Source of the DNA: a virus
Lineage: Duplodnaviria > Caudoviricetes
Virus record (IMG/VR): IMGVR_UViG_3300006056_000027
Location: 56,648-120,647 of that record
DNA length: 64,000 bases
Strand: one strand, 5' to 3'
A program made the position numbers and the translations under genes. A model generated the notes under the pieces. That model had not been told where the DNA came from. It saw only the letters and a list, made by a program, of their open reading frames with translations, and searched no databases. Numbering within the stretch: the stretch's first letter is position 1; the number at the start of each line of letters is the position of its first letter. Of the stretch, positions 22,236 through 44,700 are shown in pieces.

Positions 22236-23411
22236 TTAAACCCCTACAAGGATATTGGTTTTTTGTAATAGTAGGTACGACTTATGATCTAAGGTAATAG
22301 ATGTTTGATCGGTTGATACGTATGCAGACAATGCTGTGTCGTATATAGAAAAACTATTAATCTTAATTGATGATCCATATTGATATGTTTCTGATAGGAT
22401 CTGATTTAATGTACCAGTTGTAATAACTTGATTGTCAGAATATCTATAAAAGTCTCTAAATATAAAAGCTATAATGCCTTGCACTGTTGTGTCTGTTAAA
22501 GTTAAAAGAGAGTTTGTTACGTTCATGTGAAGTTCTAATTGCTTGGGCAAGATTACGTCGTATGTAACGCCAGACTGTAAATTAGATTTTAATGCACCAA
22601 TTACATATCGTGCTAAATCTTGGTATGACGTATCAAATCCTACAGTCTTCATTAGAGATGTTAAAAAATACACATTAAAGAAACCAGAACCATTTTCATT
22701 AGACTTAACAACAAATTCTGCCGTACCTGGGATTGATTGTATTAGACTTCCAACAAATTGCTCAGATGTTGTAGAGGTAAGAATCTTTGCTGCCTGTATC
22801 CTGTTTCTATAAGTATCGTCATCAATCTTGTCAACTGTAAATGATACTGGCTTACCAAACTTTAAGCTAATAAAGCTTGTGTATGGATTTGTATAGTTTG
22901 ACATTTCATATATAGAGTCTTGATCAATACTTAGATTGCTTAGGTTTGCAATCGGCTTAATCTTAACAAAGACAGCTACGTCCTGAAACTTATTGGTAAT
23001 AACTACAGATTCTAAGAATAGAACTATATATGATCCATCTATTTCAAATTCTTCACCAGCACTAATGATTTGATTATTAACAATGATATCGTCGAATCCT
23101 AGCGTCTCATTAAGTGGAGAGATAAATACTACGTTATCATCTTTTAATAAATTAACCGCTGGTACAAATGTTCTATAGATGCCATGCTCAGATCCGTTAA
23201 TATCCAATGCGTCACCTGTTGCGGTAGTAGTATAAACTCTTGACAACACTTCACTGATATTTGTATTTGTATTAAAGACCTCTTCTGCAAAGGCATCAGA
23301 TAATAGTTTGATCTTAGAAGAAGACGAAGAGTTATCAATGCCAGTATTAAGATTAATAGAATTGATTAAGTTTACGCTTGTTGTGTTTTTATTAAATTGT
23401 TCAATAGACAT
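22236..23411 (-). CDS. Baseplate J-like wedge protein
   Basis: YTTTATGDALDINGSEHGIYR and DDDTYRNRI match the TAxGxxLD...G..R and ExDxxYRxRI motifs. Confidence 0.85.
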   Translation of the reverse strand: MSIEQFNKNTTSVNLINSINLNTGIDNSSSSSKIKLLSDAFAEEVFNTNTNISEVLSRVYTTTATGDALDINGSEHGIYRTFVPAVNLLKDDNVVFISPLNETLGFDDIIVNNQIISAGEEFEIDGSYIVLFLESVVITNKFQDVAVFVKIKPIANLSNLSIDQDSIYEMSNYTNPYTSFISLKFGKPVSFTVDKIDDDTYRNRIQAAKILTSTTSEQFVGSLIQSIPGTAEFVVKSNENGSGFFNVYFLTSLMKTVGFDTSYQDLARYVIGALKSNLQSGVTYDVILPKQLELHMNVTNSLLTLTDTTVQGIIAFIFRDFYRYSDNQVITTGTLNQILSETYQYGSSIKINSFSIYDTALSAYVSTDQTSITLDHKSYLLLQKTNILVGV

Positions 23412-23814
23412 TTATTATTCCAGATATCATATTTATTGTTGCTGTTATATTAATTTGAGTAGATGTAAAGCCAGACAGGAGTGTTGCTATAGACACCTTA
23501 ATTACCATTGACTGATTTTTAATCAGTGCAATTACTTCTATGCTGTTTCCGTCTAAGAAGCCATCTTCTGTTAATGAATTAGTTATATTTGATACTGCGA
23601 TATCTTCTAATGTGTTTGAAGTTTTGCGACCTATCAATGATGCTAGATCGGCACCGAATGAATTATATAAAGGATAATCATACTTGGCAGATCTAATTCT
23701 ATCTACAGCATTTTGTCTTATAATTTCAGTCTTGTTATGTATTAATTTAATATCCTTATTAGATATCTCTATATCGCCAAAGTCATTAAATTTTATATCT
23801 CTTAATATTTCCAT
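23401..23814 (-). CDS. gp25-like baseplate wedge / sheath initiator
   Basis: GDIEI...DIKLI...RQNAVDRI...YPLYNSFGADLASLIG pattern; immediately upstream of the J-like gene. Confidence 0.8.
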   Translation of the reverse strand: MEILRDIKFNDFGDIEISNKDIKLIHNKTEIIRQNAVDRIRSAKYDYPLYNSFGADLASLIGRKTSNTLEDIAVSNITNSLTEDGFLDGNSIEVIALIKNQSMVIKVSIATLLSGFTSTQINITATINMISGIINVY

Positions 23815-24813: not shown

Positions 24814-27800
24814 TTAAATACCAGACTTGCCAGCAGATGTTATTGATACAGTGTTTTTTGCTTCTAAGGCATTATTTAGTTGGTACAGATTTCCGCCAGA
24901 TAATATTTGTCCAACAACATTATCTCTTGCTGTTCTAATTGCGTCCATATTTGTCTCATAGTTTTTAAACTTAGAATCTATATAGCTATTCATTTCAAAT
25001 CCTGAAATACCGCCAAGGTATGGAGATCCATTATTCAGCAATGGAAATAGTCTAACTGGTTCTCTAGTTTGCTCTATTTCTACAATAGTATCATGAACTG
25101 CTATTCCAACAAATGCCACACCAAGCAATAAGAATGAACTAACTGGATTTGTTAATGCAATTGATCCTATTTGCAGACCAGTTCTTAATACTACTCTAGA
25201 GGCTACCTTGCCAACCGTTCCAAAGAATCCACCAGCTTCTATTTTTGTTAGATGAATAGCTGCCTCTACAAGACTTCTAGAGACAGCAGGTATTGCTCTA
25301 ACGAATTTAACTGTAGAGTTTCTAGCGGCATTTGCTAATACTCTTACTGGTCCTGCGTCTGCTGCTAATGCCTCTGCTGGTAATAATGCACCTTGCACAA
25401 AGCTATAAAGCATACGTATAGAGAATGCAGTGAATGCGGCAGGAGCTGCAAATTGCATAGTTCTAGCAGTTAAGCTCTTATCTGAATTCATAATATCTCT
25501 AAGCTGTCTGGACTGTACTAGTCCAAGCATTGAAGATATTGTAGTCATTTTCTTATTATCAAAATATCCACTTTGTGTTTCAAGCTTAATCTTGTTAGAG
25601 ATAAGCGCCCATCCAATACCAAGTTTAGTAAATAGATTTGAGTAGTTATACATAGATGCCTCAGTATAAAGACCTGGAGTTATTACTGTTACGTATCCAT
25701 CATTTTCATTAAAGATATGAGAACATTCTCTAATTTTAATAATACCATTTAATCCTCTGAATGAATCTGCAAGATATGCATAGTCACCAGCTTTCATATT
25801 TGGATTGCCAATAATTACAATCTTGCCTTGATACATCTTCTCCGCTTGATTTTTTAATTCAGCAGTACCATATCTGTAAGCTGTAAACTTATGGTCGCAA
25901 CCATTCATTTCTAACTCCATACTTCTTATAGAGTTATTTTTTAGATTGTCATCTAGCAGCATATTGTAGTATTTGAATCCAGTACCAGTTCTTAAATCGT
26001 CAGCATCTGGATTGTCATCAAAGTATCTAATGTTAATTTTTGTTTTAAATCCAGAACTTATTTTTAACTGATTAGAAATAATATGATTTTCACTTGTTAT
26101 TAAATGAAACTCTGCTGCTGGTTTTAAATCTTTCCATCTTAAAGCTTCTACGTCTTTATCAACTATTTGATATGCTGTTGGCTGATTTGCCTTGTATAGA
26201 TAAACTGGAGGATCTCTAAATATGAAAAGCTGTTCCTTGATTCCGAAGAATAAAGAAGCTCTTTCTTTATAATTCATAACATTCATCCAAGTTCCTGGAT
26301 GTCTATAATTCATTTCCTTAACTACTTCCCAAACTGTAGAATTGAAAATAGGGAAGTTGACTAAAATGCCTCTATCCATTGATACTACCGCACTAACTCT
26401 ATCTCTCCAGCTTCCGTCTAATGAGAAGTGGTTATCTACTGCTTCAATAGAAGGTGAGTAAATGTTTGTAAACACTTCACTATTAGTGTCCCACCAAACT
26501 CCAAACAAGAAGTCGTTCGATGCTTCGCCTCTATCGGTTCCGCCAGTTGTTCCGTTAAGATTGGATTTTGAATTAGCCCCTCTTAGGATTGATCTAGCAT
26601 AAGGATTTCTAGAGTTAACAACATAGTATGTTTGTCCAAAGTGATAGATTTCTTCCGATCTTAATATTTCATTTAGAGTGCCACTGGTAGAAGCATTTAG
26701 AATACCAGATGCTTTACTAATACCTTCTTGGTTGTGAGTAACAGCAATAAGCTCTCTTCCGTATCCCTCTGCAACAATCTCTAATAATGTTTCACCTTCT
26801 ACTTCTGTAATCTCTCCGTTGAATACTGTTTCAAGTTCATTAGGATCATTCGAATACCCAATTCTTACATGCAATCTTGTCCCTGCTGTAAGTCTAACCT
26901 TACCAATCTTATCTCTGTAATCTGCATTGCTATTAAGTTTTGCATAGTCAAATTTTCCTTCAAAGTTCTTTGCTATAGCAGCAGCATCGGTATAGATGGC
27001 TCCTGGATTAGCTACGGTAAATGCCATAACAGCTACTGGATTATCATTGTCAGCAGTTTGAATCCTTACATCGGATATACCGAATACTTCATATAGATTT
27101 GTATCTCTGTTAGGAATAAAAGAAATTCGAGCATACTTATCATCTCTGAGTCCTTCTACCATGTATATTTTAATAGTAGGCACAGCCATATCCAATCCTG
27201 TAGACATGTAGTTGCCAGTTCTTAATGCCCTATATTGAGCTTGATGAGCCTCATTGAATAGATTAATTCCAGATGTTTCCATTCCTTTAAAGGTAAACTT
27301 TCTATCTGTCGTTAAGAATCCAGCAGGCTTTCTTATGTCTGGATTTTTAGCTAGCTCAATTCCGTCTACCACAACTCCACCGTTATCAATAACTGCTTGT
27401 GACTTAGTAGGGATATCATCAAATCCAACTCCATTAGGTAACTTGATTGAGTCTATAGTTGTCAATGAAGGATTACGATTGTTGTTTATGTTTTCTTCTG
27501 GGGCTTGCGATCCAGAATATAAACCTATCTTATCTCGTTGAGCTAGAATGTTTCCTTGGTTATAGAACTTAGCTTTCTCTGGAACCTTTTTAGCAAATAC
27601 TGGTTCTAGTTCTGCAAGGCCACTACGAAGCATTTCATAGTTAAAGTCTACTCCGTTAGAGTCAATGATATTGGCAACATCCCTTGCACCTGAATCGTTT
27701 AGTGCTGGATACTTATAAACCTTAATTGGATACTTAGCGTTATCAAATAATTGTTGCAATCTCATTCTAGCTTCTATGCCAAACTTGCCAGGTTTTCCTG

Positions 27801-30800
27801 AGTAGCTTATTTGCTTTTGATCTAAAGGATCTCTCTTTAAGGTTTCAGGAGTATCTACACCAAACACCCTTACAGTTAATCTTCCGTAGTTATTAATCTT
27901 ATTATTAACTTCTGTAAGAAGACTTACATTAATAATATTCTGAGTCATTGATACAGTGTCACCGTCGGTAATTGATGCACCCTTTCTTAGAATGGTTGCA
28001 TATAATTGAGCGTCTGGTGCTGGCTTAACTCCCTTTGTTACTGCTGGATATTTTGAACCAAGCTTATCTGATGTAACTTTACCATGTGCTGGCGGTGGAA
28101 CATCTGCATCAGATAAGCTAGATATCGCTGCTGGCAATCCAGTTTTTCTTGTAAATAGCGCAGACCATCCTTCAACAAAATTTCTATACGATATTCTGTT
28201 GTTGATATAATTTTGTTCTTTAGATAATCTTTTGTCTCTTCCTTTGATCGGATTATTTGCTGCCATCATTGTTCTAAGAGTTAGTTTGCCGAACTTGATA
28301 GAAGGGTCCGCAATTGTTTCTCTTAGTGCAATATTATTATATCCCTTTAATATTTTTGGCCATGCATAACCTTGTTGGTGCGTCATGTACAAATTAAATG
28401 TTGTTAATGGAAGTCTATTATCTGCCAGAGCCTTCATTACAAAGCTATACCAAAAATTCATAGCTGCATATGTGTTTAACTTAACATCTGCATATTGAGA
28501 AGGGGATGCGCCTATAGCTTTCAATTTATCATCACTAACTTGAAATAATCCTTTGTATAGACCGTTAACTGGATTAATTAATGTTGGATCTAAAGTTCCC
28601 CCTGTTTCTATCTTAGCCATTGCTATAGCCATCTCTGGTGTTATAAGTGGTTTGCTTCCAATTGCCTTTGCGTTTAAGAAGTTGTACGAATTAACGGCAG
28701 CAATAATTTGCTCCACAACTGTTTGCTGTTTACCAGATAAGGCTAATTGGGCTCCTACGGATACAGCTCCAAGGATTTGTTGCGTAGCGTTATTTGCGCC
28801 TTCAGTTAAGGCTTTAGATCTTACAACTAAAGAATCTATATATCCGTCTGTCATGTTTTCCATGTTGACAGAAGATTTAAGTATGTCTTTTGTAGACTTA
28901 TCCGCAAACTGATACGCAGCATTAAATGACGATGCGTCCACATATATGTTTTGATGAATAAAAAAGAACGGAGAAAATCTTTTACCGTCACCTTCTCCAA
29001 GATAAGACATTTTCTTTGCAGAATTTAATTGTCCTTTTGCTGCAACTAATGAGCTAAATATTCCTAGGTCTTGAATTGCTTCTGCATCAATCTCTTTAAT
29101 CTCTGTTTTAATAATGGATTGTTGCAATGAATCCAATATTTTTGCTGCAACGTTTCCATACTGTTGTTGCTTTTGATCTTTTGAATAATTCTGTAAGTTT
29201 AAAAATCTAGTAACAACATTGTCCATAGTATGAATTAGGGTTTGATATTCATCATGTCTCTCATCTACCTTTTTCTCTTCTACTAATTTTGCAATGTAAT
29301 CGTACAGCTTAATACTTTTTCTTAAATCATCTCCATAAACCTTAGAGAACGTAGCTGGTTCTTTGCCATGTACTCTTTCATAATAAATCTCAGCACCAAC
29401 AAACGCCTTCATTAGGATAGCTTCTATGCTGGCGTCCGAATCTAAGAATGATTTAACTTGAGTGGATAGAGCATTAATATATGTTTTTGTTTTATTTAGT
29501 ATTGGCTTTAATGTAGGATGACTTTCTAATTGCGCATTTGCAACAGCCTTTGCCCTTGCTTCAACTTCTGCAATATAGTTGCTTCCCGTTTTTAACAGCT
29601 TATCTGCTACGTCTTTATTACCATTTAACACCTTACCTTCTGGAGTAACAAACTGATAAGAATGATGTTCCTTTTCTAAGAAAGCTTCTGTAACTGACTT
29701 GATAACTTTAATCATAGTTAAAACATCGAAGTCGTAATCCTTAACGCCAGCAGGTTTAAGTTTATTCTTGCCGATAAGTTTGGTTAGATCAGATTCAACA
29801 AATGATAGGCTAGCAATTTGAAGGCCTTGATCTTCTGCTGATTCAAATGATGTTTCTGAATCAAGAACAAAGTAATGAGAGTCCGCCAACAAAGTTAGAA
29901 GATTTCTTATACGCAATGACTTGAATGGAAGTATCTTATTCGTAGCAACAACCTGAAGTCTTTCTGCTTCTCTAAGCATGTTGGTTAATATTTCATATGG
30001 CTTAGGTGCGTCATCGTTGTATGACAGGTTTGAGTTGTTGATAGACAGGTCAATCTTTAATTGCGCTGGTGACTTACCAAGATATTGCACAAATGGAAAG
30101 TCGTACATTTGCATTGTTTGAATAGCAATCGTATTGCGCTTAGTAATGCTTACAGATCTAACTTCATATGCTGAGTGTCCACTAATCTCATTGATTCCAT
30201 CCAAAATATTAATATCTTGATAGACAAGCCAGAAGTTTCCAGAAGCATTTTCTATATCTGTCGCTGCATCGTAATATGTGTTAACAAATGTAAGCTCTTT
30301 AAAGTCTTGATCTGTAAATCCAGAACTGAAAACGTTATTTTCTAAGATTTCTTTGGGCTTGTCATCAAACTGAGGAGATGCTTGCATCATTAATGGTCTA
30401 CCAAATGTAAGTGAGGTAGTGTTGAATTTAGCCATTAATGTATTGAATTTCTTAGTACAGTTTTTATTATCAGCAGCAAAGTAGTCTGCAAACACATTTG
30501 ATTCTTCTAATGAGTCTACTGTTTTTAATACGAAATCCTTCAACTCGATTGGAGCATTCTTAGCTCTTGGAGTTTTACTTGCTTCTTTATGCTCATCGTA
30601 GGCTAGGAAAGACCATGATTTGACATATGGTATATGACTAAAATAATACATATCAAATGTTAAAAAGATAACCTTCTTCACGTTTGAGTCTATTTTCATA
30701 GTCCATTCTTTTATAGCAAATGCAGTATACTCATTTGTTTTGGTTCCTATAGGCGTTATAAATTGATTCAATCTATTTGATTTAATCCAAACGAATGGAT

Positions 30801-31032
30801 ACTTTCTTAATTCAACAGAAAGCTTAATTAGATTATTCACATCAATTTGACTATTAAGATCAAAGGCTATGGTAACGCTATACGTCGCCACAGCACTGTT
30901 TGATGAATATGCATATGTAGAATTTTCTCTAATGAACGTACTGACATCAACAAACTTCTGATTGAATGCTTGGATATCTGTTGGGTTCACTCTAAGAGTA
31001 ATATCATTAATAATGAATTGTTCTGTTGACAT
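24814..31032 (-). CDS. Giant baseplate hub-like protein fused to lytic transglycosylase and thermonuclease (SNase) domains
   Basis: SLT: AMAKIETGG...YKGLFQ...YMTHQQG. SNase: TDGDT...VRVFGVDTPET...DSGAR...NYEMLRSGLA...AQRDKIGLY. Hub-like: GTRLHVRIGY...VFNGEITEV...IVAEGYGREL and GKIVIIGNPNMKAGD. Hydrophobic C-terminal helices. Confidence 0.8.
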   Translation of the reverse strand: MSTEQFIINDITLRVNPTDIQAFNQKFVDVSTFIRENSTYAYSSNSAVATYSVTIAFDLNSQIDVNNLIKLSVELRKYPFVWIKSNRLNQFITPIGTKTNEYTAFAIKEWTMKIDSNVKKVIFLTFDMYYFSHIPYVKSWSFLAYDEHKEASKTPRAKNAPIELKDFVLKTVDSLEESNVFADYFAADNKNCTKKFNTLMAKFNTTSLTFGRPLMMQASPQFDDKPKEILENNVFSSGFTDQDFKELTFVNTYYDAATDIENASGNFWLVYQDINILDGINEISGHSAYEVRSVSITKRNTIAIQTMQMYDFPFVQYLGKSPAQLKIDLSINNSNLSYNDDAPKPYEILTNMLREAERLQVVATNKILPFKSLRIRNLLTLLADSHYFVLDSETSFESAEDQGLQIASLSFVESDLTKLIGKNKLKPAGVKDYDFDVLTMIKVIKSVTEAFLEKEHHSYQFVTPEGKVLNGNKDVADKLLKTGSNYIAEVEARAKAVANAQLESHPTLKPILNKTKTYINALSTQVKSFLDSDASIEAILMKAFVGAEIYYERVHGKEPATFSKVYGDDLRKSIKLYDYIAKLVEEKKVDERHDEYQTLIHTMDNVVTRFLNLQNYSKDQKQQQYGNVAAKILDSLQQSIIKTEIKEIDAEAIQDLGIFSSLVAAKGQLNSAKKMSYLGEGDGKRFSPFFFIHQNIYVDASSFNAAYQFADKSTKDILKSSVNMENMTDGYIDSLVVRSKALTEGANNATQQILGAVSVGAQLALSGKQQTVVEQIIAAVNSYNFLNAKAIGSKPLITPEMAIAMAKIETGGTLDPTLINPVNGLYKGLFQVSDDKLKAIGASPSQYADVKLNTYAAMNFWYSFVMKALADNRLPLTTFNLYMTHQQGYAWPKILKGYNNIALRETIADPSIKFGKLTLRTMMAANNPIKGRDKRLSKEQNYINNRISYRNFVEGWSALFTRKTGLPAAISSLSDADVPPPAHGKVTSDKLGSKYPAVTKGVKPAPDAQLYATILRKGASITDGDTVSMTQNIINVSLLTEVNNKINNYGRLTVRVFGVDTPETLKRDPLDQKQISYSGKPGKFGIEARMRLQQLFDNAKYPIKVYKYPALNDSGARDVANIIDSNGVDFNYEMLRSGLAELEPVFAKKVPEKAKFYNQGNILAQRDKIGLYSGSQAPEENINNNRNPSLTTIDSIKLPNGVGFDDIPTKSQAVIDNGGVVVDGIELAKNPDIRKPAGFLTTDRKFTFKGMETSGINLFNEAHQAQYRALRTGNYMSTGLDMAVPTIKIYMVEGLRDDKYARISFIPNRDTNLYEVFGISDVRIQTADNDNPVAVMAFTVANPGAIYTDAAAIAKNFEGKFDYAKLNSNADYRDKIGKVRLTAGTRLHVRIGYSNDPNELETVFNGEITEVEGETLLEIVAEGYGRELIAVTHNQEGISKASGILNASTSGTLNEILRSEEIYHFGQTYYVVNSRNPYARSILRGANSKSNLNGTTGGTDRGEASNDFLFGVWWDTNSEVFTNIYSPSIEAVDNHFSLDGSWRDRVSAVVSMDRGILVNFPIFNSTVWEVVKEMNYRHPGTWMNVMNYKERASLFFGIKEQLFIFRDPPVYLYKANQPTAYQIVDKDVEALRWKDLKPAAEFHLITSENHIISNQLKISSGFKTKINIRYFDDNPDADDLRTGTGFKYYNMLLDDNLKNNSIRSMELEMNGCDHKFTAYRYGTAELKNQAEKMYQGKIVIIGNPNMKAGDYAYLADSFRGLNGIIKIRECSHIFNENDGYVTVITPGLYTEASMYNYSNLFTKLGIGWALISNKIKLETQSGYFDNKKMTTISSMLGLVQSRQLRDIMNSDKSLTARTMQFAAPAAFTAFSIRMLYSFVQGALLPAEALAADAGPVRVLANAARNSTVKFVRAIPAVSRSLVEAAIHLTKIEAGGFFGTVGKVASRVVLRTGLQIGSIALTNPVSSFLLLGVAFVGIAVHDTIVEIEQTREPVRLFPLLNNGSPYLGGISGFEMNSYIDSKFKNYETNMDAIRTARDNVVGQILSGGNLYQLNNALEAKNTVSITSAGKSGI

Positions 31033-31033
31033 A

Positions 31034-34000
31034 TTAGTATCTTTGTTCTCGTTTATCTCTTATGTTGACATTGGTTCTACTACCACCTTTGTCACCAAAT
31101 AATGTTCTTTGTAGATTTGAAACTTTTTGACCGTCTCGTTTTGATTGGCCGTTGATATTAGTTGTTTGTCCGTATCCAGACTTTTTATAGGTAGGTGCAT
31201 TCTCGGATTGCAATGGACCAAGTATACCATCGCTTGTTGAGAATGGTACAGCTTCTTTTGTCATCTCTGGTGTTTCAGCTCCTACGAACATAGCCGTTGC
31301 AGCAAGTGCAGCAGCACCAACACTTAGTGGCATTCTATTTTTATACATATTTCTTTTAGCGGCATGAAATATATCAGATCCTCTTTGGCCAATACTCTTA
31401 ATTCTAGCTTCAGTATTAGCTGCTAATTCTTCAGACTCTATCATGTTTGCATTTGCCATAGTTTGCAAATACTCAATCATCTTATCGAATGAATGCACAT
31501 CTCTAGCGTCTTTAATTCTTGCACCAGATCTTTCTATTTGATGAGCAAACTCTACAGTTCCTTCGATTACGTCAGAAATACCTTGATTGTAATTCTTCAT
31601 AATATTGTCAGCTAAATCAATATGTCCTTCCGCTCTCTTACCTTCTGCAAATGATTTTACTTTATTTCCAAGCAAGTTTTCTAGAGCCTGTTTAGTTTGT
31701 TCTCTATACTCTCTTGTATTTCCACCTAGTAATTTCTTATAGGCACTTTGTAATGTTTCAATTTCTGAAACACCCATAGTTCTTCTTATATCTTCATTTG
31801 ATCTATGAGCTGACTTAATTAGACTTTCTGTAATGTTATGGATTACTGTTCTTCCAGTAATACTTCTAGACATTCTTTCTTCTGCAGATAATGTAGTATC
31901 ACTATCAAGCCTATGAATTAACATATCCGTCATATTCATTGCAAGGTAAGTTGCTGGTGCCGCTAAGATCTTTCTTTGTCTTCCTTTAAATGAAGATGTA
32001 GCTTGGTCTGCGTAATATGCTGCGGCTGAATTGTAATCGCCTAAGAATGATTTAGGATTGATTGCGCCATTCTTTTGTTTAGATGCCATAGCATCCATTA
32101 AATGTTGTGACTCATCAAACGCTTTATTTTGAGTGGCCATCATAGCTTCAAACATTTTCTTATGTTCTGGATTCTTAAAGTCTATACCTGTCACCCTAAT
32201 AGTGTCATAGTCATAGTCGGTAAATTGGCCTTTTTCAAAGATGTTTTTATTGCTGTTATGAGCAAACCCAACTTCGTCCTTGCCTAATTGTGCTGAAGGA
32301 TCAAAGTATGCATCACCACTAATAATAGAGAAGGCGCCTTGTGATGGTTCACGAGTCCACATATTTCTAAGCGGCCTTATGTTGCCCTTCTTATCTTTAA
32401 TCATGGCCTGCTGAATGCCACCATGACCGACATCTTCCCAATGAATGCTCTTGCTATCAATACCCATTCTTTCTGCAAGGCCGTATATTGTTGCTTTAGA
32501 ATAAGCAGCGCCAGCATTCTTCGCTGCACCACTTTCCATGAATGATGCAAAGTTTCCGCCAACACTTCTAGCTCTCATAAATGAGCTACCATCTACAGTT
32601 GACTTAGAAGCAGCCTTAGCAATATTGCCATCCCCTTTAAGAAGTCTAACGTGCATCTCTTCAACTTGTGAAAGTACATCCATATATCTAGCAGCATATG
32701 CCTTCTTATGAGCTGGTTCAGCATTGATATATTCTAAGTCTGCCTTGATTAAATCTCTTCTCTTTTTGTCTAGCTTACTAAGTATGTCTGCTTCGCCAAC
32801 TTGTAAATGTCCAGTTCTATTAGTAGTTAAAAAGGATATTGGCACACTTTTAATTTTGCCACCCTTCTTGCCATATTCTTCTGGAGTTGACAGGTTGTAG
32901 GACAGGAAGTCTCCTTGAGCGGTTAACGCGCCTTTAAGTGCATTCTTTCTATTCTCTGGAATAAAATCAAATGAATCAACTATTTGATTACCATGCGTAG
33001 CTTTAATATTGTCAGGTATTTCCTTATCAATAGCAGCCATAGACTGAATCATTCTTAATTCAAATGCTGCATCAGCACTAGGTCTAGTAATTACACCAAG
33101 CATGTCATCAGTCCATCCAGAAGCTTTTAATTGCTTTCTTTCTAGCCATGACATTGAACCAACGTTTCCGATACCATGCAATCCTTCTCCTAGGTCAGCA
33201 ACAACTCTGGTTTGTAATGCTGCTACATCTGACATTGACTTAACATTTCTATCAATTACACTACGTAATGCATTTTCAGCAACATCTCTATTCTCAACTA
33301 ATAGTCTTCCGCCGCGAAGATTATCTAAATCCTGTAAGCCTTTTGTATCATTGTTTTTAGATGCAAGGTTTCTTAGCGTTACAAACAGATCAGAATTGCC
33401 TTTAAAGTCCATCTGAGACTGAATGAATATAGATGCCTTGGTTTTAGATAGCTCGTCGCTTTTCGCATCCTGGAGTATCTTAACGGCATTCCCAAATAGT
33501 CCTTTCTCATTAAGCTTGTTGGCATCTGTAAGAGTTTGTATAAGCTTGTTGTGGTCATATAGTGCATCAGCTCCAGAGTCTTTTGCTCCAAGCATAATAT
33601 CGCCAGCTATCCCAAATCTATTTACAAGATGCTTTGCAGCGCCATCTATATTTCCAGATGTCATTAATGAATTGATTTGTAGTTTTGCAACATCAGCATT
33701 TGCTGTATAGCCTTTTAGTGCGTATCTTTTTCTTCTTAATTCTAAGACATAATCTTTGAAGCCTTTAGACTTTTCATCAATTGAATATCCAGAAGCACTT
33801 GAGTCGAATGAAATAATACCTGACCTTCTTAGGTTCTCCATTGTTGATATGGCTTTAAACTGGCTATCTGTAACTGATGTGTAACCAGCTTTAGAAGATG
33901 TACCAAATAGTTTTAACCATCTTTGTATTGATGCGTCAAATGATGCTTCTACGTTTATTTTTAATGCAGAGTTGTTTGTCCAAGCAGATTTAATTATTCC

Positions 34001-35809
34001 ACCTGTGTAAACATTTCCAATCCTTGATTCCTTGCCAAGCTTATCAAATCCTACGACGTCATTTGCTCCAAGTTTAATATTCTCAAGCATTGCCTGTCTC
34101 TTGGTTAAGTCACTTTCCGACATAGCTTTTGCAAGTTCTTCATGGATAATTGGATAAAGACCATTCTCTCCTTTTGCTATTTCTAAAGAGATGTGTTGCT
34201 TCTCTGACAGTCTAGCAAGAGATTCTTCGTTAATAAGACCAGCACCATCTGCAATACTTACATGTCCTCCAAATAATTTAGAGATATAACTACTCATTCC
34301 TGAATCAATATCTACTCTTGAAACTATCTTTTCATTACCAGCACCGAGTCTGGCCCCAGGCTCTTCAATGTATCCTCTGCCAGTTACGACATCTGTAGCA
34401 CGTTCCATCGTCGGTACAAAGGCATCATCCAAGGCTAGGTTCTTAAAGTCCAATGCAGAGAAGTATCCAACAGTGTTTAGTCCTTGTCCAGCTAATGGAT
34501 TATACCCTTCGTGCGCGAACTCATTGCCTAGTCTTCTTAATAGGTTGCTCATCTCTGATGCGCTACCGTTCTCAGAAATAGACTTAATTTTGTTTAATTT
34601 CATTAAGCCGTCGTCTTTAATTTCAATAGCGTCTTCAAAGTATACGGATGCACCAGATAGCCTTCTCATATATTCTGAAAACTTACTATCAGGCATCGAA
34701 GTAAGATCTCCTAGTTTGTTATAGGCAAGTGGAGAGTCTGCAGCAACATACTGCATTTGCTTCATTGTTTTTTCATACCAGTCCGCTATATTAACCTTGC
34801 CATCTTTCTTTTCCATGAAGCCTATAATGTCTTCTGGAGCCATCTTCGTCTTAATAAGTTCAGATATATTATCTGATCCCATAATGTCTTTTAGTAGTGG
34901 TTCATTAAAATATGCTTGGCCATTGGCGTAGAGTCTTCCAAATGGATTAATTGGCTTTGATGCGTATAGCGTATCTCCAATTTTTGCAAAGCGAGCACTA
35001 CCACCTTTGTTTTGAACTGTTAGTGGAATCTCATGCGCTACACCATTTTGTTGAGCTATTAATGTGCTTCCTTTCACAACAAAATCTGTACCATGAAGGC
35101 CATGCAATAACAGTCCTGCTTTTCTAGTAGCTTCTTCTTTGCCATATCCTAATTGATTAATAAAATGACTAGACAGTATATTGAGACTATTTGCCTTATT
35201 TGAGGTTGAGTTTATATGTACTGTTTTAAGTGTTTCTTGGAACTTATTATCTGCGGCATCTACTAATTGGATTTTAGTATCTAACTTTCTAGCATTACTA
35301 ATTGCCGATATAGCTTTTTCTTCTGTGTCAGATCCCATAATAAACTTAGAAAGATTATCTAGGTAATCATTAGAATTAGATCCAAGCTCTGCTGGTAGCG
35401 TAACACCTCTAGCGCTAGCAAGTGTCAATACGTTGTGTTGCAATATTTCTATTCTTGATTTAAGCCTATCAACGTGATTAATAGCTCTATCTAGCTTCTT
35501 GGCATTGTTTCTAGTTTGTTTCCATCCACCTATTGCAACTACAAGATTCTCAGCTTTCTTTAACTTGGAATTAAGTCCTGTAACCTTATCTGATAAGTTT
35601 TGACGATCAAATTGTTTAGACATAAGCATAGAGCTGTCATATTTGAATACAGCATTCTTTTTAGAAAAAGGAGATACCACTTTTGAGTAAGAAGAATAAT
35701 ACGCAGTAGCAGCTCCTATACCGCTACCTAATATTCCAGCGATAGGATGATCAAGTGGATCTTGTGATAGGCCACCTATAGCAGCCCCTGTTAATAATTT
35801 TAATGACAT
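31034..35809 (-). CDS. Putative single-subunit two-barrel (fused beta/beta'-like) DNA-dependent RNA polymerase, probably virion-associated
   Basis: Collinear motifs: IADGAGLI, KLFGTSSKAG, ERKQLKASG...ML, LLKGDGNIAKAASKSTVDGSS, TREPSQGAFSI, TDYDYDT, TESLIKSAH. Details in the findings. Confidence 0.78.
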   Translation of the reverse strand: MSLKLLTGAAIGGLSQDPLDHPIAGILGSGIGAATAYYSSYSKVVSPFSKKNAVFKYDSSMLMSKQFDRQNLSDKVTGLNSKLKKAENLVVAIGGWKQTRNNAKKLDRAINHVDRLKSRIEILQHNVLTLASARGVTLPAELGSNSNDYLDNLSKFIMGSDTEEKAISAISNARKLDTKIQLVDAADNKFQETLKTVHINSTSNKANSLNILSSHFINQLGYGKEEATRKAGLLLHGLHGTDFVVKGSTLIAQQNGVAHEIPLTVQNKGGSARFAKIGDTLYASKPINPFGRLYANGQAYFNEPLLKDIMGSDNISELIKTKMAPEDIIGFMEKKDGKVNIADWYEKTMKQMQYVAADSPLAYNKLGDLTSMPDSKFSEYMRRLSGASVYFEDAIEIKDDGLMKLNKIKSISENGSASEMSNLLRRLGNEFAHEGYNPLAGQGLNTVGYFSALDFKNLALDDAFVPTMERATDVVTGRGYIEEPGARLGAGNEKIVSRVDIDSGMSSYISKLFGGHVSIADGAGLINEESLARLSEKQHISLEIAKGENGLYPIIHEELAKAMSESDLTKRQAMLENIKLGANDVVGFDKLGKESRIGNVYTGGIIKSAWTNNSALKINVEASFDASIQRWLKLFGTSSKAGYTSVTDSQFKAISTMENLRRSGIISFDSSASGYSIDEKSKGFKDYVLELRRKRYALKGYTANADVAKLQINSLMTSGNIDGAAKHLVNRFGIAGDIMLGAKDSGADALYDHNKLIQTLTDANKLNEKGLFGNAVKILQDAKSDELSKTKASIFIQSQMDFKGNSDLFVTLRNLASKNNDTKGLQDLDNLRGGRLLVENRDVAENALRSVIDRNVKSMSDVAALQTRVVADLGEGLHGIGNVGSMSWLERKQLKASGWTDDMLGVITRPSADAAFELRMIQSMAAIDKEIPDNIKATHGNQIVDSFDFIPENRKNALKGALTAQGDFLSYNLSTPEEYGKKGGKIKSVPISFLTTNRTGHLQVGEADILSKLDKKRRDLIKADLEYINAEPAHKKAYAARYMDVLSQVEEMHVRLLKGDGNIAKAASKSTVDGSSFMRARSVGGNFASFMESGAAKNAGAAYSKATIYGLAERMGIDSKSIHWEDVGHGGIQQAMIKDKKGNIRPLRNMWTREPSQGAFSIISGDAYFDPSAQLGKDEVGFAHNSNKNIFEKGQFTDYDYDTIRVTGIDFKNPEHKKMFEAMMATQNKAFDESQHLMDAMASKQKNGAINPKSFLGDYNSAAAYYADQATSSFKGRQRKILAAPATYLAMNMTDMLIHRLDSDTTLSAEERMSRSITGRTVIHNITESLIKSAHRSNEDIRRTMGVSEIETLQSAYKKLLGGNTREYREQTKQALENLLGNKVKSFAEGKRAEGHIDLADNIMKNYNQGISDVIEGTVEFAHQIERSGARIKDARDVHSFDKMIEYLQTMANANMIESEELAANTEARIKSIGQRGSDIFHAAKRNMYKNRMPLSVGAAALAATAMFVGAETPEMTKEAVPFSTSDGILGPLQSENAPTYKKSGYGQTTNINGQSKRDGQKVSNLQRTLFGDKGGSRTNVNIRDKREQRY

Positions 35810-38800
35810 TATGCACCAATGTTAAAGTTTAAATTGTCTGTCTTGCTTATATGGAATTGTACGCTATCAACGTCTACTCCACGTTTATATAGTTCACTTT
35901 TAATACTAGCGGAAGATCTTTTTTCTTCCTTGATGGAATTTTTGATCTGCTCGATTTGTCCAGTAACTTGTTTTTCTTGTTGAACTATTGATAATCTTCT
36001 TAGTCTATTCTCATCGCTATCCCAAAAGCCATACTCTCTTACATCTTCTTTGCCAATTGATAATGTTTGTAGCTTGATATCTTTCATATCTATCCTAGGA
36101 TCCCATCCAGCAAAGTTTCTATCTGGAACGCCAGTTGTTCTTTTTACATAACTTTCTACTTCTTTATCTTGTACAAATTCAGAGAATGAAGATGATTCTT
36201 TTTCATTACTTCTTTTGTATTGTTCGTATAGGCCTCTATTATCTGATATTAAGTCTGACTCTTCATTGCTAACTATATTCATAACAGCAGCAGTTTGAGC
36301 TTCTGGACTTGAGGCTCCAGCGATAGCGTCTCTACGTTTCCACAACTTGCTATATAAATTTGCTATATCTGTAGGAACCATATCAACTATTTGAGATCTT
36401 TCTTCTGAACTAGTAGCTCCTGAGAATGCTGCGAAGTACGCTTTCTGTCTATCTGGTAATGCTATGTAAGCTCTGGTCACTTCCATATTCTCATCTAAGC
36501 CAGTAGTCAATGCCCCAGTAACGGTTGCTTGATATTTCTTTTTATACTCATGTGCGTTGCCATCTCCGCTTGCCACAGACTCTTTGTATAGATTTCTATA
36601 CTTCATATACTCTAATCTGTCAAAATATGTATCTATAGCATTTCTTTCTTGTGCTTCTTCTGGCATATCATTTGACGGATCTAGCTTATTAGCAAACGGT
36701 TTAAGGAAATGATCGTATGGCTTTGTCCACATACCGACATCAGAACCTTCTATTTGTGTTGCTATATAATCTTCTGTAGCTGTTCTTTGATGTATAAACT
36801 TAGCTGCTGGTCTAAAGAATGTTAATGTTTCTGTTGGAGCTTCAGCAAGACGTGATGAGACGCTCCACAATGACGATAGAGCCGTGTCAACGAATCCAGC
36901 ATCTTGCATATCCTCTTTGGTTAAAGGTGTGGCAAAACGCTTCTGTATGGATCTCTGAGACTCTTGATCCTTGATTGTGGAATACATTCCTTGTTCATAG
37001 TCTGTTAATTGACCCTGAACAGATCTTGCTTCCATAATATCTTTGTATTGATAGTATTCGTCACTACCTAAAGCGACATCTGAAAGGATTTTATACTTGA
37101 AGATATCTGGATAATCTTTTGGATCAATACCTTTAAGTTCTGGGAATAATTCAGAATAGCCTTCGCCAGGAAGTCTATAGTATCCTCTATCTACTTTTGA
37201 ATAAGGGTCGCCAATAGAGAAGTCTTGCCAGTAATTATTAGGATCATGAGGTAGCCATTCTGGCATTAAGTTTCTTAAAGGGTTTGCAGAATCAACAATA
37301 GATCCTGAGTTTGTAGGAATAAATCTTCTAAGTGATTCACCTATTGGACCCATACCGCCGAGATTTCTTTCTAATAAGTCTCTAGCTATATTATTGCTTT
37401 CACCAGATCTAGCTAGTTGTAATCCAGAATCACCAACTCCAGTATGGGTATAGTCGTTCATCAACGACACAGCCCAACCTTTTAAGCCAGCAAAGTCTGT
37501 TAAAGCATTATAAGATCCATCTGCAAGTTCTCTATTCAGATTCATCTTTGCATTTTCAGGGGCTAACATTTTGCCTTCCTGAACTAAAGATGCTTCCTCG
37601 TCTGTCACTTTCTGCTTAAGAGATACGCCCTGTTCTGAATCTAAAGATCCGCCATCAACATATTCACTTAGTCTTTCATTAACTAAGTCAGGCTTAATTA
37701 CTCTTCCAATTGTTCCTTCAAATATTTTACCGAATACACCAGCATGAGATACTGACATTCCCCAAACTGGATATGGAGATCTTTCTTGGTTAAGTTCTTC
37801 GTATCTGTATGGGTTTCTTAAATAATCAAATGGATGTAGGAATGGATTAAGATCGCTCTTTGTTTCTTGATCGCCGTACTTACCAACTGTTTCGGCATCG
37901 TTCATTAACTGTGAATACCAAGACTTTGTAAAATACTTAATCTTACCGCCTTCATATTCAGTACCACCAGATGTCCAGAATCTTGTTGATCTGATTGCTA
38001 CATCTTCTTCACCAGAATATTCTTTTCTTAATTGCTCTGAAGACTCACCTACTAGTGCTCCTGGAAGGAATGGTAATGCTGGAATTGCACCGACTATAGC
38101 ACCTAATGCTGCGAGTTTCTTAACCTTGGTCAGCTTAACTCCGTCTGCTGGATCTCTAAGTAAAACCTTATTAACTAGAGAAGACTCTGTTTCTCTAGCA
38201 AAGATCTTTTCCGTTTCTGCAAAGCCTCTAATCGCTGTTGAGGCAAGTCTTGTTGAATAACCTACAGTACCACCAAACATGGCACCAGCTAATGGAAAAC
38301 CTGCTAATGCAATTACGCTAGTAGACCCAGGCGCATAATATTCTTGTCTTTCTTTATATCCCTGAAAGTTATCAGACCATGCAGATGCAACACCAACTCT
38401 AGCAGTTGTATATCCAGTTGCTAATCCAGGAAGTATCCCTTTATCAAATGGAGAAGACTGATCTGCTACTGATTTAACTACTTCATTAAGAATGCTTAAA
38501 CCAGCTCCAGCCATCAATGATGCTTTTGCTATATTGCCAGCACTCATTGCAAATGATCTAGGAACAGACTTTGTATAATCTCCTTTAGTGCCTAAGCCTA
38601 AGCTAAGACTATCTCTAACGCCATGAAGGAAATTGTACTTCTGAGGAAGACCAGTTTTATCTATTAGTTCTGCAAAGAAGTCTAATGGCTTATCAAATAT
38701 CTTAAAGCCAGGCTCTATAGATAATCTACCAAAAGCCCTAGACCATCCAAGCATCATGTCACTTTGACTCTTACCAGCTATAACACCTAATTTTCCATTC

Positions 38801-39495
38801 TCTGATAAAGCAGCGTTATAGAATCTAGAAGCATCTTCTACTCCCATAACATTTCTAAACTTTTCATATACTCTGTTTAGGAATGGAGAGCTTTTTTCAC
38901 CAAGACCTTTATCTACATCTGGAGACAGGGAAACGATTCTTGCATGCTCAAGTAAGGTTGATGACATATCTGCCGAGTATAATTTACCAGATTGATATAC
39001 GGCACCACTTCTAAATACTTCATCTATTACTTGTGGATGTAGATTATTACCCTTCTCTGCAAATAGTTTTCTAAAATATTCTTCATCTAGAAACAATTGC
39101 GTTGCAGTTATGTTAATTGGAACTGTGTCTTTTGGAAGATTAGTTACCGATAACAGACTTGATGTATGAAAGGTTCTTAGGATTTTAAATGGAGATAGTT
39201 CTTCAGCACCTTTAGCGAATGCAAGGCTTAGGTCACCAAGAGTAACCTTTCTTTTAATAGCAAGATCTGACCATGCCGTATCATTATATCTAATATAATC
39301 ATTTAAGATGTTTAACTTAAACAACCTAGACGCAGCAGACTGACCTATATCTGTATTTAATAAATAGGCAGCACCAGCCATAGATGCAGAAACGCCACCT
39401 ATTTCTAAGATGGCGTTATTACTTTTCTCTTTTCTTGCTCTCTCAAATTCCTCGTAGGTATTCGCAGATGAGCTAACATAGTTTGCTTCATTCAT
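35809..39495 (-). CDS. Tape-measure-position protein / putative ejected membrane-channel protein
   Basis: 1228 aa directly after two chaperone-like genes; several Gly/Ala-rich hydrophobic segments in the N-terminal half. Confidence 0.5.
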   Translation of the reverse strand: MNEANYVSSSANTYEEFERARKEKSNNAILEIGGVSASMAGAAYLLNTDIGQSAASRLFKLNILNDYIRYNDTAWSDLAIKRKVTLGDLSLAFAKGAEELSPFKILRTFHTSSLLSVTNLPKDTVPINITATQLFLDEEYFRKLFAEKGNNLHPQVIDEVFRSGAVYQSGKLYSADMSSTLLEHARIVSLSPDVDKGLGEKSSPFLNRVYEKFRNVMGVEDASRFYNAALSENGKLGVIAGKSQSDMMLGWSRAFGRLSIEPGFKIFDKPLDFFAELIDKTGLPQKYNFLHGVRDSLSLGLGTKGDYTKSVPRSFAMSAGNIAKASLMAGAGLSILNEVVKSVADQSSPFDKGILPGLATGYTTARVGVASAWSDNFQGYKERQEYYAPGSTSVIALAGFPLAGAMFGGTVGYSTRLASTAIRGFAETEKIFARETESSLVNKVLLRDPADGVKLTKVKKLAALGAIVGAIPALPFLPGALVGESSEQLRKEYSGEEDVAIRSTRFWTSGGTEYEGGKIKYFTKSWYSQLMNDAETVGKYGDQETKSDLNPFLHPFDYLRNPYRYEELNQERSPYPVWGMSVSHAGVFGKIFEGTIGRVIKPDLVNERLSEYVDGGSLDSEQGVSLKQKVTDEEASLVQEGKMLAPENAKMNLNRELADGSYNALTDFAGLKGWAVSLMNDYTHTGVGDSGLQLARSGESNNIARDLLERNLGGMGPIGESLRRFIPTNSGSIVDSANPLRNLMPEWLPHDPNNYWQDFSIGDPYSKVDRGYYRLPGEGYSELFPELKGIDPKDYPDIFKYKILSDVALGSDEYYQYKDIMEARSVQGQLTDYEQGMYSTIKDQESQRSIQKRFATPLTKEDMQDAGFVDTALSSLWSVSSRLAEAPTETLTFFRPAAKFIHQRTATEDYIATQIEGSDVGMWTKPYDHFLKPFANKLDPSNDMPEEAQERNAIDTYFDRLEYMKYRNLYKESVASGDGNAHEYKKKYQATVTGALTTGLDENMEVTRAYIALPDRQKAYFAAFSGATSSEERSQIVDMVPTDIANLYSKLWKRRDAIAGASSPEAQTAAVMNIVSNEESDLISDNRGLYEQYKRSNEKESSSFSEFVQDKEVESYVKRTTGVPDRNFAGWDPRIDMKDIKLQTLSIGKEDVREYGFWDSDENRLRRLSIVQQEKQVTGQIEQIKNSIKEEKRSSASIKSELYKRGVDVDSVQFHISKTDNLNFNIGA

Positions 39496-40009
39496 TTTGA
39501 ATTGTTTCTATTGGATTAACTTCTTGCTGGAACGTTGTCAAGCATATTGTATAAAGCCTAAATAGTTCATTAACTGGAAACTGTTCAACTTCTCTAAATG
39601 GAGTAGACATAAATCTTGATACTATAGCTTGCATAGAATGCAGGACATTTATCTGTGCCTTGCATTCTTCTATATAGCCTAGAACGTTTTCCACATACTG
39701 CATGCTCTTGCCAACTATTGCGGTTGCCAAGGTAGATACAATACCAGCTTCCATTCCGTCCCAATCAACCGCATCGGTTATGCCAATAAAGCTTTCAAAT
39801 GTGTTGTTGACAATATCTTGTTCTATTTCTATTGATGCAACTGGTTCATTAAGATCAAATAGGTTTACCCTTTCTAATTCTTTAACAGTTAACAACCTAG
39901 CTATGCAAATCGGTTCATCATATACAATACCATTAATAGTAACGCATTGCCCTAAGAGAGGAATTGATACTCCGCTTATGCCAGCAGAAAGAATATTGTC
40001 TAGCTTCAT
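39488..40009 (-). CDS. Putative tail assembly chaperone
   Basis: ARLLTVKELE motif, acidic, second of two chaperone-sized genes after the tube genes. Confidence 0.5.
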   Translation of the reverse strand: MKLDNILSAGISGVSIPLLGQCVTINGIVYDEPICIARLLTVKELERVNLFDLNEPVASIEIEQDIVNNTFESFIGITDAVDWDGMEAGIVSTLATAIVGKSMQYVENVLGYIEECKAQINVLHSMQAIVSRFMSTPFREVEQFPVNELFRLYTICLTTFQQEVNPIETIQNE

Positions 40010-40425
40010 TAGATGACCTTAATTAAGTTCAATGCCATTTGATCCGAAACAAATCCCGATCTGTATAGTATCTGTTTTGCTAAAGTAGGAACAACTCCAG
40101 CATCTGATACAGATACATTCTCTGCCGATACTTTTGGCCAAAGAACACATCTACGAACAACGGTTTCTTCGTATAACATTGGATTCTTTACGATTCCGTT
40201 ATTAACCATTTGCTTATATTCTTGCCTGTTAATAGTTCTCCATACATAAATAGAGTCGTCTCCAAGGACAGATGATACAAAGATTTTGCCGTAGTTATCT
40301 TTCCATGCTTCTACAGTTAGTTCATCTGGTGCATCTTCGTATGTTGACAGAACTGCTAATAGCTCAGCTAGATTGTCGTCCTTTACATTAACCGCTTCTT
40401 CTTGTGTTTCAATTGTGTCTGACAT
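40009..40425 (-). CDS. Tail assembly chaperone
   Basis: WKDNYGKIF...YVWRTINRQEYK...CVLWP...AGVVPTLAKQILYRSGF; acidic N-terminus; canonical position. Confidence 0.65.
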   Translation of the reverse strand: MSDTIETQEEAVNVKDDNLAELLAVLSTYEDAPDELTVEAWKDNYGKIFVSSVLGDDSIYVWRTINRQEYKQMVNNGIVKNPMLYEETVVRRCVLWPKVSAENVSVSDAGVVPTLAKQILYRSGFVSDQMALNLIKVI

Positions 40426-41766: not shown

Positions 41767-41781
41767 TAAGTTTCCTCCAAT

Positions 41782-41807
41782 AAAAATGCCCAGACATACT
41801 GGGCATT
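41782..41807 (-). terminator. Intrinsic terminator after the tail tube gene
   Basis: Minus strand reads AATGCCCAG-TATGT-CTGGGCATT-TTT. Confidence 0.75.
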
Positions 41808-41839
41808 ATATATGAACGGTTTATGAAATTTCTATTACA

Positions 41840-44670: not shown

Positions 44671-44700
44671 TAATTTTTTCTCCAATTAGATTGTTTAGAT

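Follow-up and report, generated by a model that had tools for sequence, protein, structure and literature searches.

RNA polymerases (RNAPs) that are carried in the virion start the phage programme without the host enzyme and bear on the uptake of DNA into the cell. In the Thermus siphovirus P23-45, as well as in P74-26, G20c, and TSP4, the virion enzyme gp96 combines a two-barrel RNAP with the tape measure in one polypeptide (Chaban et al. 2024, PMC10770324; PDB 8H2M/8H2N), and it has been proposed to transcribe the first DNA entering the cell (PMC10770324). The virion-packaged RNAPs of phiKZ and AR9 are multisubunit enzymes, while that of N4 is a T7-like RRM-palm polymerase (PMC7824862). In the literature that we were able to search, the P23-45 group of Thermus siphoviruses was the sole case of a two-barrel, tail-associated enzyme, and we found no published description of an RNAP in the corresponding slot of myophages. 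Here, we analyze three adjacent giant genes on a viral contig from IMG/VR (IMGVR_UViG_3300006056_000027; 120,647 bp, estimated 66% complete), the middle one of which, P0002, very probably encodes a fused beta/beta'-type two-barrel polymerase core with intact catalytic residues, as judged from structural models. Coordinates refer to the window, the whole stretch of 64,000 nucleotides (nt) that was analyzed, corresponding to positions 56,648 to 120,647 of the contig. The three genes are as follows.

35809..39495, minus strand: P0003, 1228 amino acids (aa), tape-measure-position protein with four hydrophobic segments, from a highly conserved family
31034..35809, minus strand: P0002, 1591 aa, single-chain two-barrel RNA-polymerase-like protein
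24814..31032, minus strand: P0001, 2072 aa, baseplate hub bearing inserted enzymatic domains

The cassette lies in a contractile-tail module, between chaperone-position genes and baseplate genes. As a first-pass annotation of this DNA had described, the open reading frames (ORFs) are tightly coupled. The P0003/P0002 junction reads GCA-TAATG-TCA, a 1-nt stop/start overlap, and the P0002/P0001 junction reads TAC-TAA-t-ATG, a 1-nt gap. The upstream 173-aa ORF overlaps the P0003 ORF by 8 nt, and the downstream 227-aa ORF begins 2 nt past the P0001 ORF. A Kyte-Doolittle scan also bore out the Gly/Ala-rich hydrophobic helices reported for P0003, P0002, and P0001 alike.

The closest precedent for P0002 is the tape-measure-fused virion RNAP gp96 of P23-45. 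Like gp96, P0002 is predicted to be a two-barrel RNAP in a single, very diverged chain. Both are encoded in the tape-measure region of long-tailed phages, both polypeptides include hydrophobic membrane-type segments, and both can be recognized by sequence only through the [RK]xP...DxDxD signature. The gp96 polymerase forms the N-terminus of a 5002-aa tape measure, whereas P0002 is encoded by a separate gene between the tape-measure-position gene and the hub. P23-45 is a siphovirus, whereas the tail here is contractile, and the loop reads DFDGD in gp96 but DYDYD, with a variable fourth position, in P0002. Again unlike the situation in P23-45, no second, non-virion RNAP was found on this partial contig: there was no P0002 paralogue or second signature and no sigma70_r2 match, a result that is inconclusive at ~66% completeness. 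The activity and virion location of gp96 have been demonstrated, while those of P0002 are predictions. A profile search of the PDB gave no sequence match between the two proteins, and their fold similarity (Z 7.0-7.3) is lower than that of P0002 to QDE-1 or P74-26 gp62. Four differences from gp96 stand out: a polymerase in a gene of its own, a contractile tail, a new sequence family, and no second polymerase seen.

P0002 belongs to no Pfam, PHROG, or NCBIfam family and has no sequence or profile match in the PDB. The Pfam RNAP models PF00623 (RNA_pol_Rpb1_2) and PF05183 (RdRP) had zero matches on the genome even at an expectation value (E) of <= 10, which places P0002 outside those sequence families, not outside the two-barrel superfamily. 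Such a lack of profile matches is expected for very diverged two-barrel RNAPs, and Chaban et al. used the pattern [RK]xPx{20,100}DxDxD as a filter for recognizing them (PMC10770324, Suppl. Data 4). P0002 contains this pattern, with R1153-E-P1155 followed by 42 residues and then D1198. The regions of the protein are laid out below.

35690..35797, minus strand: N-terminal glycine-zipper-like hydrophobic segment, residues ~5-40, family-wide, consensus GAxxGAYTQD....P.....GAxIGAxxG
33770..34330, minus strand: beta/Rpb2-like barrel region, residues ~494-680, beta-rich in the longer model, with K633 at 33911-33913 and K640 at 33890-33892
32180..32590, minus strand: beta'-like double-psi beta-barrel, residues ~1074-1210, with R1153-E-P1155 at 32345-32353 and the D1198-Y-D-Y-D1202 metal-binding loop at 32204-32218
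31037..31372, minus strand: C-terminal module, residues ~1480-1591, comprising a hydrophobic helix (residues 1493-1511, 31277-31333) and a conserved tail

A profile search of 1.84 billion cluster representatives (clusters at 50% identity) gathered a P0002 family of 108 members, mostly 1450-2440 aa in length and sharing the C-terminal 700-1100 residues. When P0002 was aligned with five metagenomic homologues and with ME3_36 of the Acinetobacter jumbo myophage vB_AbaM_ME3 (21% identity), D1198, D1200, D1202, the motif R1153-E-P1155-x-Q-G, and further charged residues proved invariant. Conservation was then counted over 96 full-length family members, clustered at 50% identity or lower.

P0002 D1198, D1200, and D1202: kept in 95/96 each
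P0002 K1065: kept in 95/96
P0002 P1155: kept in 95/96
P0002 R1153: kept in 94/96
P0002 K1332: kept in 94/96
P0002 K1244: kept in 92/96
P0002 K1280: kept in 92/96
P0002 R1279: kept in 90/96
P0002 H1335: kept in 84/96

In addition, at least 90% of 44 diverse members have K633 and K640. Such conservation is what an enzyme active site shows, and not a ruler. Family members differ in length mainly in the N-terminal part (608-1410 residues ahead of K640), while the last ~390 residues are nearly fixed, and the length-variable N-terminal part could hold a ruler. One alternative is that the middle protein is a non-catalytic tape measure or tail-lumen protein descended from a polymerase, its fold kept for structural reasons. 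The variable N-terminal length fits this idea, as do the annotation of the slot as "hypothetical tape measure" in phage 0305phi8-36 and the presence at loop residue 1201 of Tyr instead of the usual Gly. Position 1201 of the DYDYD loop varies freely across the family (Q/A/Y/G), however, so that Tyr in P0002 is not a lesion. The core is globular and of constant length, and gp146 of 0305phi8-36 is unrelated. Finally, retention of the Asp triad, R-x-P, and lysines in 94-95/96 members and in far more divergent loci would be unlikely without catalytic selection, and we judge a purely structural role quite improbable.

To compare folds, we modeled P0002 with AlphaFold2 from a 44-sequence alignment and searched known structures with Foldseek and, independently, with VIA-align. 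Model 1 covers residues 820-1500 (predicted local distance difference test [pLDDT] 87.0, predicted template modeling score [pTM] 0.80). All 49 of its Foldseek matches listed from the PDB are RNAP largest subunits (Pol II Rpb1, bacterial beta', AR9 nvRNAP, and vaccinia), the best with an E of 3.4e-4. In VIA-align, the two highest scores went to QDE-1 (Z 11.1) and RDR2 (Z 10.9). The largest subunits of the vaccinia, Pol I, archaeal, Pol II, and Mycobacterium enzymes came next at Z ~9, and after them the phage enzymes of AR9 and phiKZ, P74-26 gp62, P23-45 gp96, and phi14:2 gp66. Generic double-psi barrels aligned solely to model-1 residues 255-390, where the DxDxD loop is located. They spanned 85-110 residues, versus 250-400 residues for the VIA-align RNAP matches (Z 9-11.6).

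The longer model 2 (residues 470-1500; pLDDT 87.8, pTM 0.85) takes in both barrels. Its residues 1-411 (protein 470-880) resemble beta/Rpb2, with matches to Pol I A135 (Z 6.9 over 237 residues), Xanthomonas beta (Z 6.1 over 245 residues), and chain 8qma_A of the plastid PEP (Z 7.2), while its residues 453-990 (protein 922-1459) resemble beta'/Rpb1 chains (Z 9.0-9.7). Both halves are spanned by the single-chain enzymes QDE-1 (Z 11.6, 343 residues), RDR2 (Z 10.0), and P74-26 gp62 (Z 9.3), and also by P23-45 gp96 (Z 7.3, 305 residues) and phi14:2 gp66 (Z 6.5, 368 residues). QDE-1 was also the top Foldseek match (E 1.9e-3). In BFVD, the best match was ME3_36 ("Uncharacterized protein"). Below it came entries that are unnamed or called "minor tail protein", giant proteins from the Microcystis phages MaMV-DC and Ma-LMM01, and annotated viral RNAPs. 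Thus, the 1591-aa protein that had been put forward as an RNAP candidate is RNAP-like by its predicted fold, with an invariant Asp triad, an upstream R-x-P, and two conserved lysines in the second barrel. As modeled, P0002 has every computable defining feature of the two-barrel superfamily; RNA synthesis itself is a prediction.

Two of the Microcystis myophage giants are individually fold-similar to the two-barrel model in BFVD: MaMV-DC A0A075BUT7 (E 1.4e-5) and Ma-LMM01 A0A7J4 (E 9.4e-5). These proteins may be further family members.

The structural matches also raise the question as to which reaction such an enzyme would catalyze. QDE-1 and RDR2, the top matches, are RNA-dependent, and a virion-delivered two-barrel enzyme might in principle carry out RNA-dependent synthesis, priming, PolD-like DNA synthesis, or formation of an anti-defence nucleotide product. 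Countering this, P23-45 gp96 and gp64 have been reported as DNA-dependent RNA polymerases (PMC10770324). Archaeal PolD is not among the matches listed, which does not exclude PolD. YonO and phi14:2 gp66 are DNA-dependent RNA polymerases as well, and a reaction other than DNA-dependent transcription seems to us very unlikely.

P0002 resembles QDE-1, RDR2, YonO, and P23-45 gp64/P74-26 gp62 in having both barrels in one chain, and its best structural matches are found in this group (Z 9.3-11.6). Unlike P0002, QDE-1, the plant enzyme RDR2, and the phage or plasmid single-subunit clade (YonO, gp64/gp62) are soluble cytoplasmic proteins of 600-1400 residues without hydrophobic termini or tail-gene context. 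P0002 is also like gp66 of the crAss-like phage phi14:2 (PDB 6VR4), a giant two-barrel virion RNAP encoded beside very large genes whose products are thought to be ejected. In contrast to P0002, phi14:2 gp66 comes from a podovirus, lacks a tape-measure, hub, or sheath context, and shares no sequence similarity with it. The phi14:2 enzyme is stored in the head or muzzle, not in a long tail. By analogy with the virion RNAPs of phiKZ/AR9 and N4, P0002 would be a phage polymerase delivered with the genome for host-independent early transcription. The phiKZ and AR9 virion RNAPs are located in the head, and the RRM-palm enzyme of N4 belongs to a different family from the two-barrel kind. The locus had earlier been compared with crAss-like and N4-like podoviruses. 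P23-45 is the closer precedent (PMC10770324), and the N4 enzyme is of another family (PMC7824862).

We next consider the relatives of the cassette. The closest annotated genome is that of ME3, in which sheath and tube genes and a "putative tail chaperonin" are followed by ME3_35 ("virion structural protein"), ME3_36 ("hypothetical protein"), and ME3_37 ("baseplate hub"). Seven IMG/VR loci found via the middle protein have the same arrangement and the same tight coupling. A wider set of 56 loci, of which 54 are informative, was found via the P0003 family (25-63% identity). In 52/54 informative loci, a P0003-like gene is followed by a gene of 1390-1810 aa, and the hub comes next wherever the locus reaches. 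Loss of synteny among relatives had been named in the first-pass annotation as a possible refutation of the three-gene system, and with the order kept in 52/54 loci this refutation fails.

In 24/56 loci, the middle gene falls below the 1e-5 cut-off of the family hidden Markov model (HMM), yet each has a single [RK]xP...DxDxD signature. Wherever the ORF of such a divergent gene is complete, this signature lies 370-495 residues ahead of the C-terminus; the distance in P0002 is 393. Many show weak colinear matches to the family HMM, and several have motifs nearer to canonical, such as RHPIVHP...MAGDYDADQVAV and LRGDYDGDNVIV. The two exceptional loci, L035 and L037, have only a 193-aa ORF (L035:13659-14240) separating the P0003-like gene from the hub. 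The L035 ORF matches just the C-terminal module of the polymerase (profile positions 994-1088) and has a strongly hydrophobic helix.

More distant relatives are found in cultured jumbo myophages of Bacillus. KLEB27-3 gp034 (L068:11004-18308) is a 2434-aa protein with RYPTINQ...ADYDGD, matches the family profile over the catalytic region (E 8.4e-9), and sits between a split P0003-like pair and the hub. WH1 gp095 (L069:12593-20140), a 2515-aa protein with RYPTINK...ADHDGD, is a full-length homologue of KLEB27-3 gp034. The records label the former "structural protein" and the latter "virion structural protein". A large and previously unannotated family, its genes labelled "hypothetical," "minor tail," or "structural protein" and including ME3 and, distantly, WH1 and KLEB27-3, is thus probably a family of polymerases.

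The same gene order after the chaperones is found in 0305phi8-36, in which gp145 is homologous to P0003 and gp147 to P0001. The product between them, gp146, is recorded as a "hypothetical tape measure protein" and was detected in virions. We rejected gp146 as a homologue of P0002, as it has no HMM match and no DxDxD; it also has no BLAST match to WH1 gp095. 0305phi8-36 has a YonO-like RNAP elsewhere in its genome, and a survey of jumbo phages lists no RNAP for the group of ME3 (Iyer et al. 2021, PMC7824862).

In one related locus, L022, translation with genetic code table 11 yields matches to the P0003-like, polymerase-like, and hub families only as short fragments of ORFs. This fragmentation could come from a different genetic code, many frameshifts, or poor assembly.

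The first gene of the cassette, P0003, has the following features.

39358-39414, minus strand: hydrophobic segment, residues 28-46, the fourth found in the Kyte-Doolittle scan
38050..38532, minus strand: cluster of Gly/Ala-rich hydrophobic segments, residues 322-340, 394-412, and 455-482, from the same scan
36898..38097, minus strand: conserved core, residues ~467-866, common to virion proteins of Bacillus jumbo phages

P0003 has no family in Pfam, NCBIfam, or PHROG, a library that also holds tape-measure families, and no sequence or profile match in the PDB. It is 33% identical to ME3_35 across 98% of its own length, and its core (~467-866) matches gp145 of 0305phi8-36, whose record lists it as found in virions by mass spectrometry. 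The family has more than 200 members of almost constant length (1211-1336 aa), and positions 465-486 are largely invariant across it. It is also better conserved than the P0002 family: in the same relative, P0003 is 63% identical, versus 42% for P0002. P0003 is most likely the tape-measure equivalent, given its post-chaperone slot, its four hydrophobic segments, its virion-proven homologue gp145, and its standing as the sole giant gene before the hub in L035 and L037, although another role is possible. The first-pass annotation had implied that a tape measure was missing from the locus; on the same grounds, it is more likely that P0003 fills the role.

Some relatives of P0003 carry inserted elements. 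Inteins occur near residues 507-509, 715-720, 747-748, and 766, at least three of these sites being at or beside invariant residues, and staphylococcal nuclease (SNase) domains are inserted in the variable stretch ~610-650. Depending on the phage, the SNase module sits in the P0003-like protein or in the hub.

For the third gene, P0001, we delineated four regions.

28333..28650, minus strand: SLT lytic transglycosylase domain, residues ~795-900, with the catalytic Glu in IETGG, and GLFQ
27514..27876, minus strand: SNase domain, residues 1053-1173 (PF00565, E 7.9e-9, 36.4 bits versus a cut-off of 21)
25513..27378, minus strand: gp27/VgrG-type hub region, residues ~1219-1840 (phrog_8809, E 1e-131)
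25081..25452, minus strand: C-terminal hydrophobic helices, residues 1861-1884 and 1966-1984, from the hydropathy scan

Homology to known hub and enzyme families shows P0001 to be a gp27/VgrG-type hub with a predicted lytic transglycosylase and a predicted staphylococcal-type nuclease, the combination proposed for it earlier. By tblastn, P0001 matches ME3_37 (E 7e-90) and the "baseplate hub" gp147 of 0305phi8-36, and its residues 1726-1794 have weak VgrG_rel and YQBQ matches; its gene precedes those of the gp25-like and gp6-like baseplate proteins, as a hub gene would. Direct matches of the SLT region are weak (Pfam E 0.11; PDB lytic transglycosylase E 0.057), but the region can be aligned with homologues assigned to PF01464 by Pfam, and all 12 sequences keep the catalytic Glu. 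In the SNase domain, DGDT, R..G.D.PET, and a downstream Arg are conserved among homologues. Among relatives of P0001, domains of the SLT, SNase, M23, LysM, and glucosaminidase types occur in varying combinations, which indicates that the enzymatic load of the hub is modular. Such modularity has already been recorded for the 0305phi8-36 lineage, in which gp147 is a "hyperplastic" gp27 homologue (gp27/gpD family) with wall-degrading domains and the BtI1 homologue has an SNase (Hardies et al. 2007, PMC2147016).

Amino acid composition bears on a possible tail association. Cysteine makes up 0.55% of residues in the minus-strand structural module versus 1.59% in the plus-strand genes. At the structural-module rate, ~9 and ~7 cysteines would be expected in P0002 and P0003, respectively, yet none is present (0/1591 and 0/1228). 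Cysteine is also absent from WH1 gp095, from KLEB27-3 gp034, and from a 500-aa putative exonuclease (59520-61022).

One possibility is that the middle protein is a real two-barrel polymerase that is never packaged, a late, non-virion enzyme encoded in a tail operon. In 0305phi8-36, the YonO-like RNAP is encoded outside the tail module (PMC7824862), virion presence of the close family is a prediction, and P0002 could be the sole phage polymerase, as no second one was found on the contig. On the other hand, P0002 is translationally coupled to a homologue of a virion protein and to the hub, has hydrophobic termini, and is cysteine-free like its neighbors and unlike the plus-strand genes. In L035 and L037, all that is left in this slot is the C-terminal module, and distant members are labelled structural. 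Moreover, a polymerase made only with late structural genes would come too late to start phage transcription. On balance, we regard an unpackaged enzyme as unlikely.

We instead favor a tail association for P0002. The C-terminal module stands alone in the slot in L035 and L037, the last ~390 residues of the family are nearly fixed, and length variation is N-terminal; from this we infer that the module is the element belonging to the tail or hub, with the polymerase body as attached cargo. Lineages that keep only this module suggest a separable cargo-anchoring element. Taken together, the data make it reasonably probable that a tape-measure-role protein, a two-barrel polymerase, and a hub form a conserved three-protein cassette of the tail interior and hub in ME3-like and 0305phi8-36-like large contractile-tailed phages. 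By analogy with P23-45, this suggests a phage that carries its own transcription enzyme in its tail.

A possible sequence of events can be outlined. P0003 would take the tape-measure role and enter the membrane on ejection, and the C-terminal module of P0002 probably anchors the polymerase inside the tail or hub. Upon sheath contraction, the hub would breach the wall via its SLT domain, and the tail-lumen proteins would exit ahead of the DNA, their hydrophobic segments entering the membrane. The polymerase would then transcribe the first-entering genes, by analogy with the tape-measure-fused polymerase of P23-45, and the hub nuclease might target host DNA or the nucleic acid of the envelope or biofilm. 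An injected entry, transcription, and nuclease system had been proposed in the first-pass annotation. The RNAP-like middle gene, the hub with SLT and SNase domains, the hydrophobic helices, and the synteny all support it in part, while delivery stands as a proposal.

More tentatively, and with a probability somewhat below even, a broad and almost wholly uncultured group of contractile-tailed phages may deliver a self-contained two-barrel RNAP from the tail or baseplate instead of the head. It would be ejected in a set of three, together with a membrane-inserting tape-measure-like protein and a hub with wall-lytic and nuclease domains. The polymerase would be modular cargo, gained and lost between lineages and held by a separable C-terminal "tail-lumen anchor," and its transcription could draw the genome in. 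If the polymerase assignment and its tail association are confirmed, tail-borne transcription would be extended to contractile tails, and the storage of a ~1000-residue enzyme in a tail, as well as its passage through that tail, would call for an explanation. Cultured members of the group would then provide a tractable system for studying the coupling of ejection and transcription.

Several points weigh against a tail-borne polymerase. A folded polymerase of ~1000 residues cannot fit the lumen of a tail tube, which leaves its storage place and state unexplained. For the close members, virion location, ejection, and activity are all deductions, with ME3_36 labelled "hypothetical protein", and the "structural" labels of WH1 gp095 and KLEB27-3 gp034 have a basis that could not be confirmed. 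No sequence profile in Pfam, PHROG, NCBIfam, or the PDB ties P0002 to known RNAPs. For a large model that is partly helical, Z scores of 9-12 count as good but not overwhelming, and the Foldseek E values are just 1e-3 to 1e-4. K633 and K640 were placed by conservation and domain alignment, not by active-site distances to the Asp triad. The best structural matches are the RNA-dependent QDE-1 and RDR2, and a DNA template and an RNA product are predictions for P0002. Lastly, the tape-measure role of P0003 is positional, and the high conservation and near-constant length of this protein are atypical of tape measures.

The surrounding genes complete the contractile-tail module.

42505..44685: sheath gene
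41035..42460: two tube-like genes
39488..40425, minus strand: two small ORFs of 138 and 173 aa in the tail assembly chaperone slot, overlapping P0003 and assigned by position only
23401..23814: sheath-initiator/gp25-like gene
22236..23411: gp6-like wedge gene

The TerL, portal, and capsid genes are located further along. A megablast search of the region against phage genomes gave zero matches. The two chaperone-slot ORFs match phrog_29362 (function unassigned) and occupy the same place as ME3_33/ME3_34 and as gp143/gp144 of 0305phi8-36.

Two further candidates were examined. A second ME3 protein of 798 aa, A0A172Q0S6, is fold-similar to the polymerase model in BFVD. The sole 798-aa coding sequence found in ME3, ME3_309 (KU935715.1 224453-226849; L073:154-2550), is without the Asp triad and has no counterpart here. 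The 500-aa ORF at 59520..61022, the putative exonuclease, has no Pfam family at E <= 0.001; a C-terminal motif that it might share with P0002 came down in BLASTP to 8 residues (E 1.9).

Finally, the tube-position genes at 41035-42460 match phrog_9206, which is labelled "major head protein". Judging from their position and from the annotations in 0305phi8-36 and ME3 (tail tube and paralogue), this label looks wrong for them.

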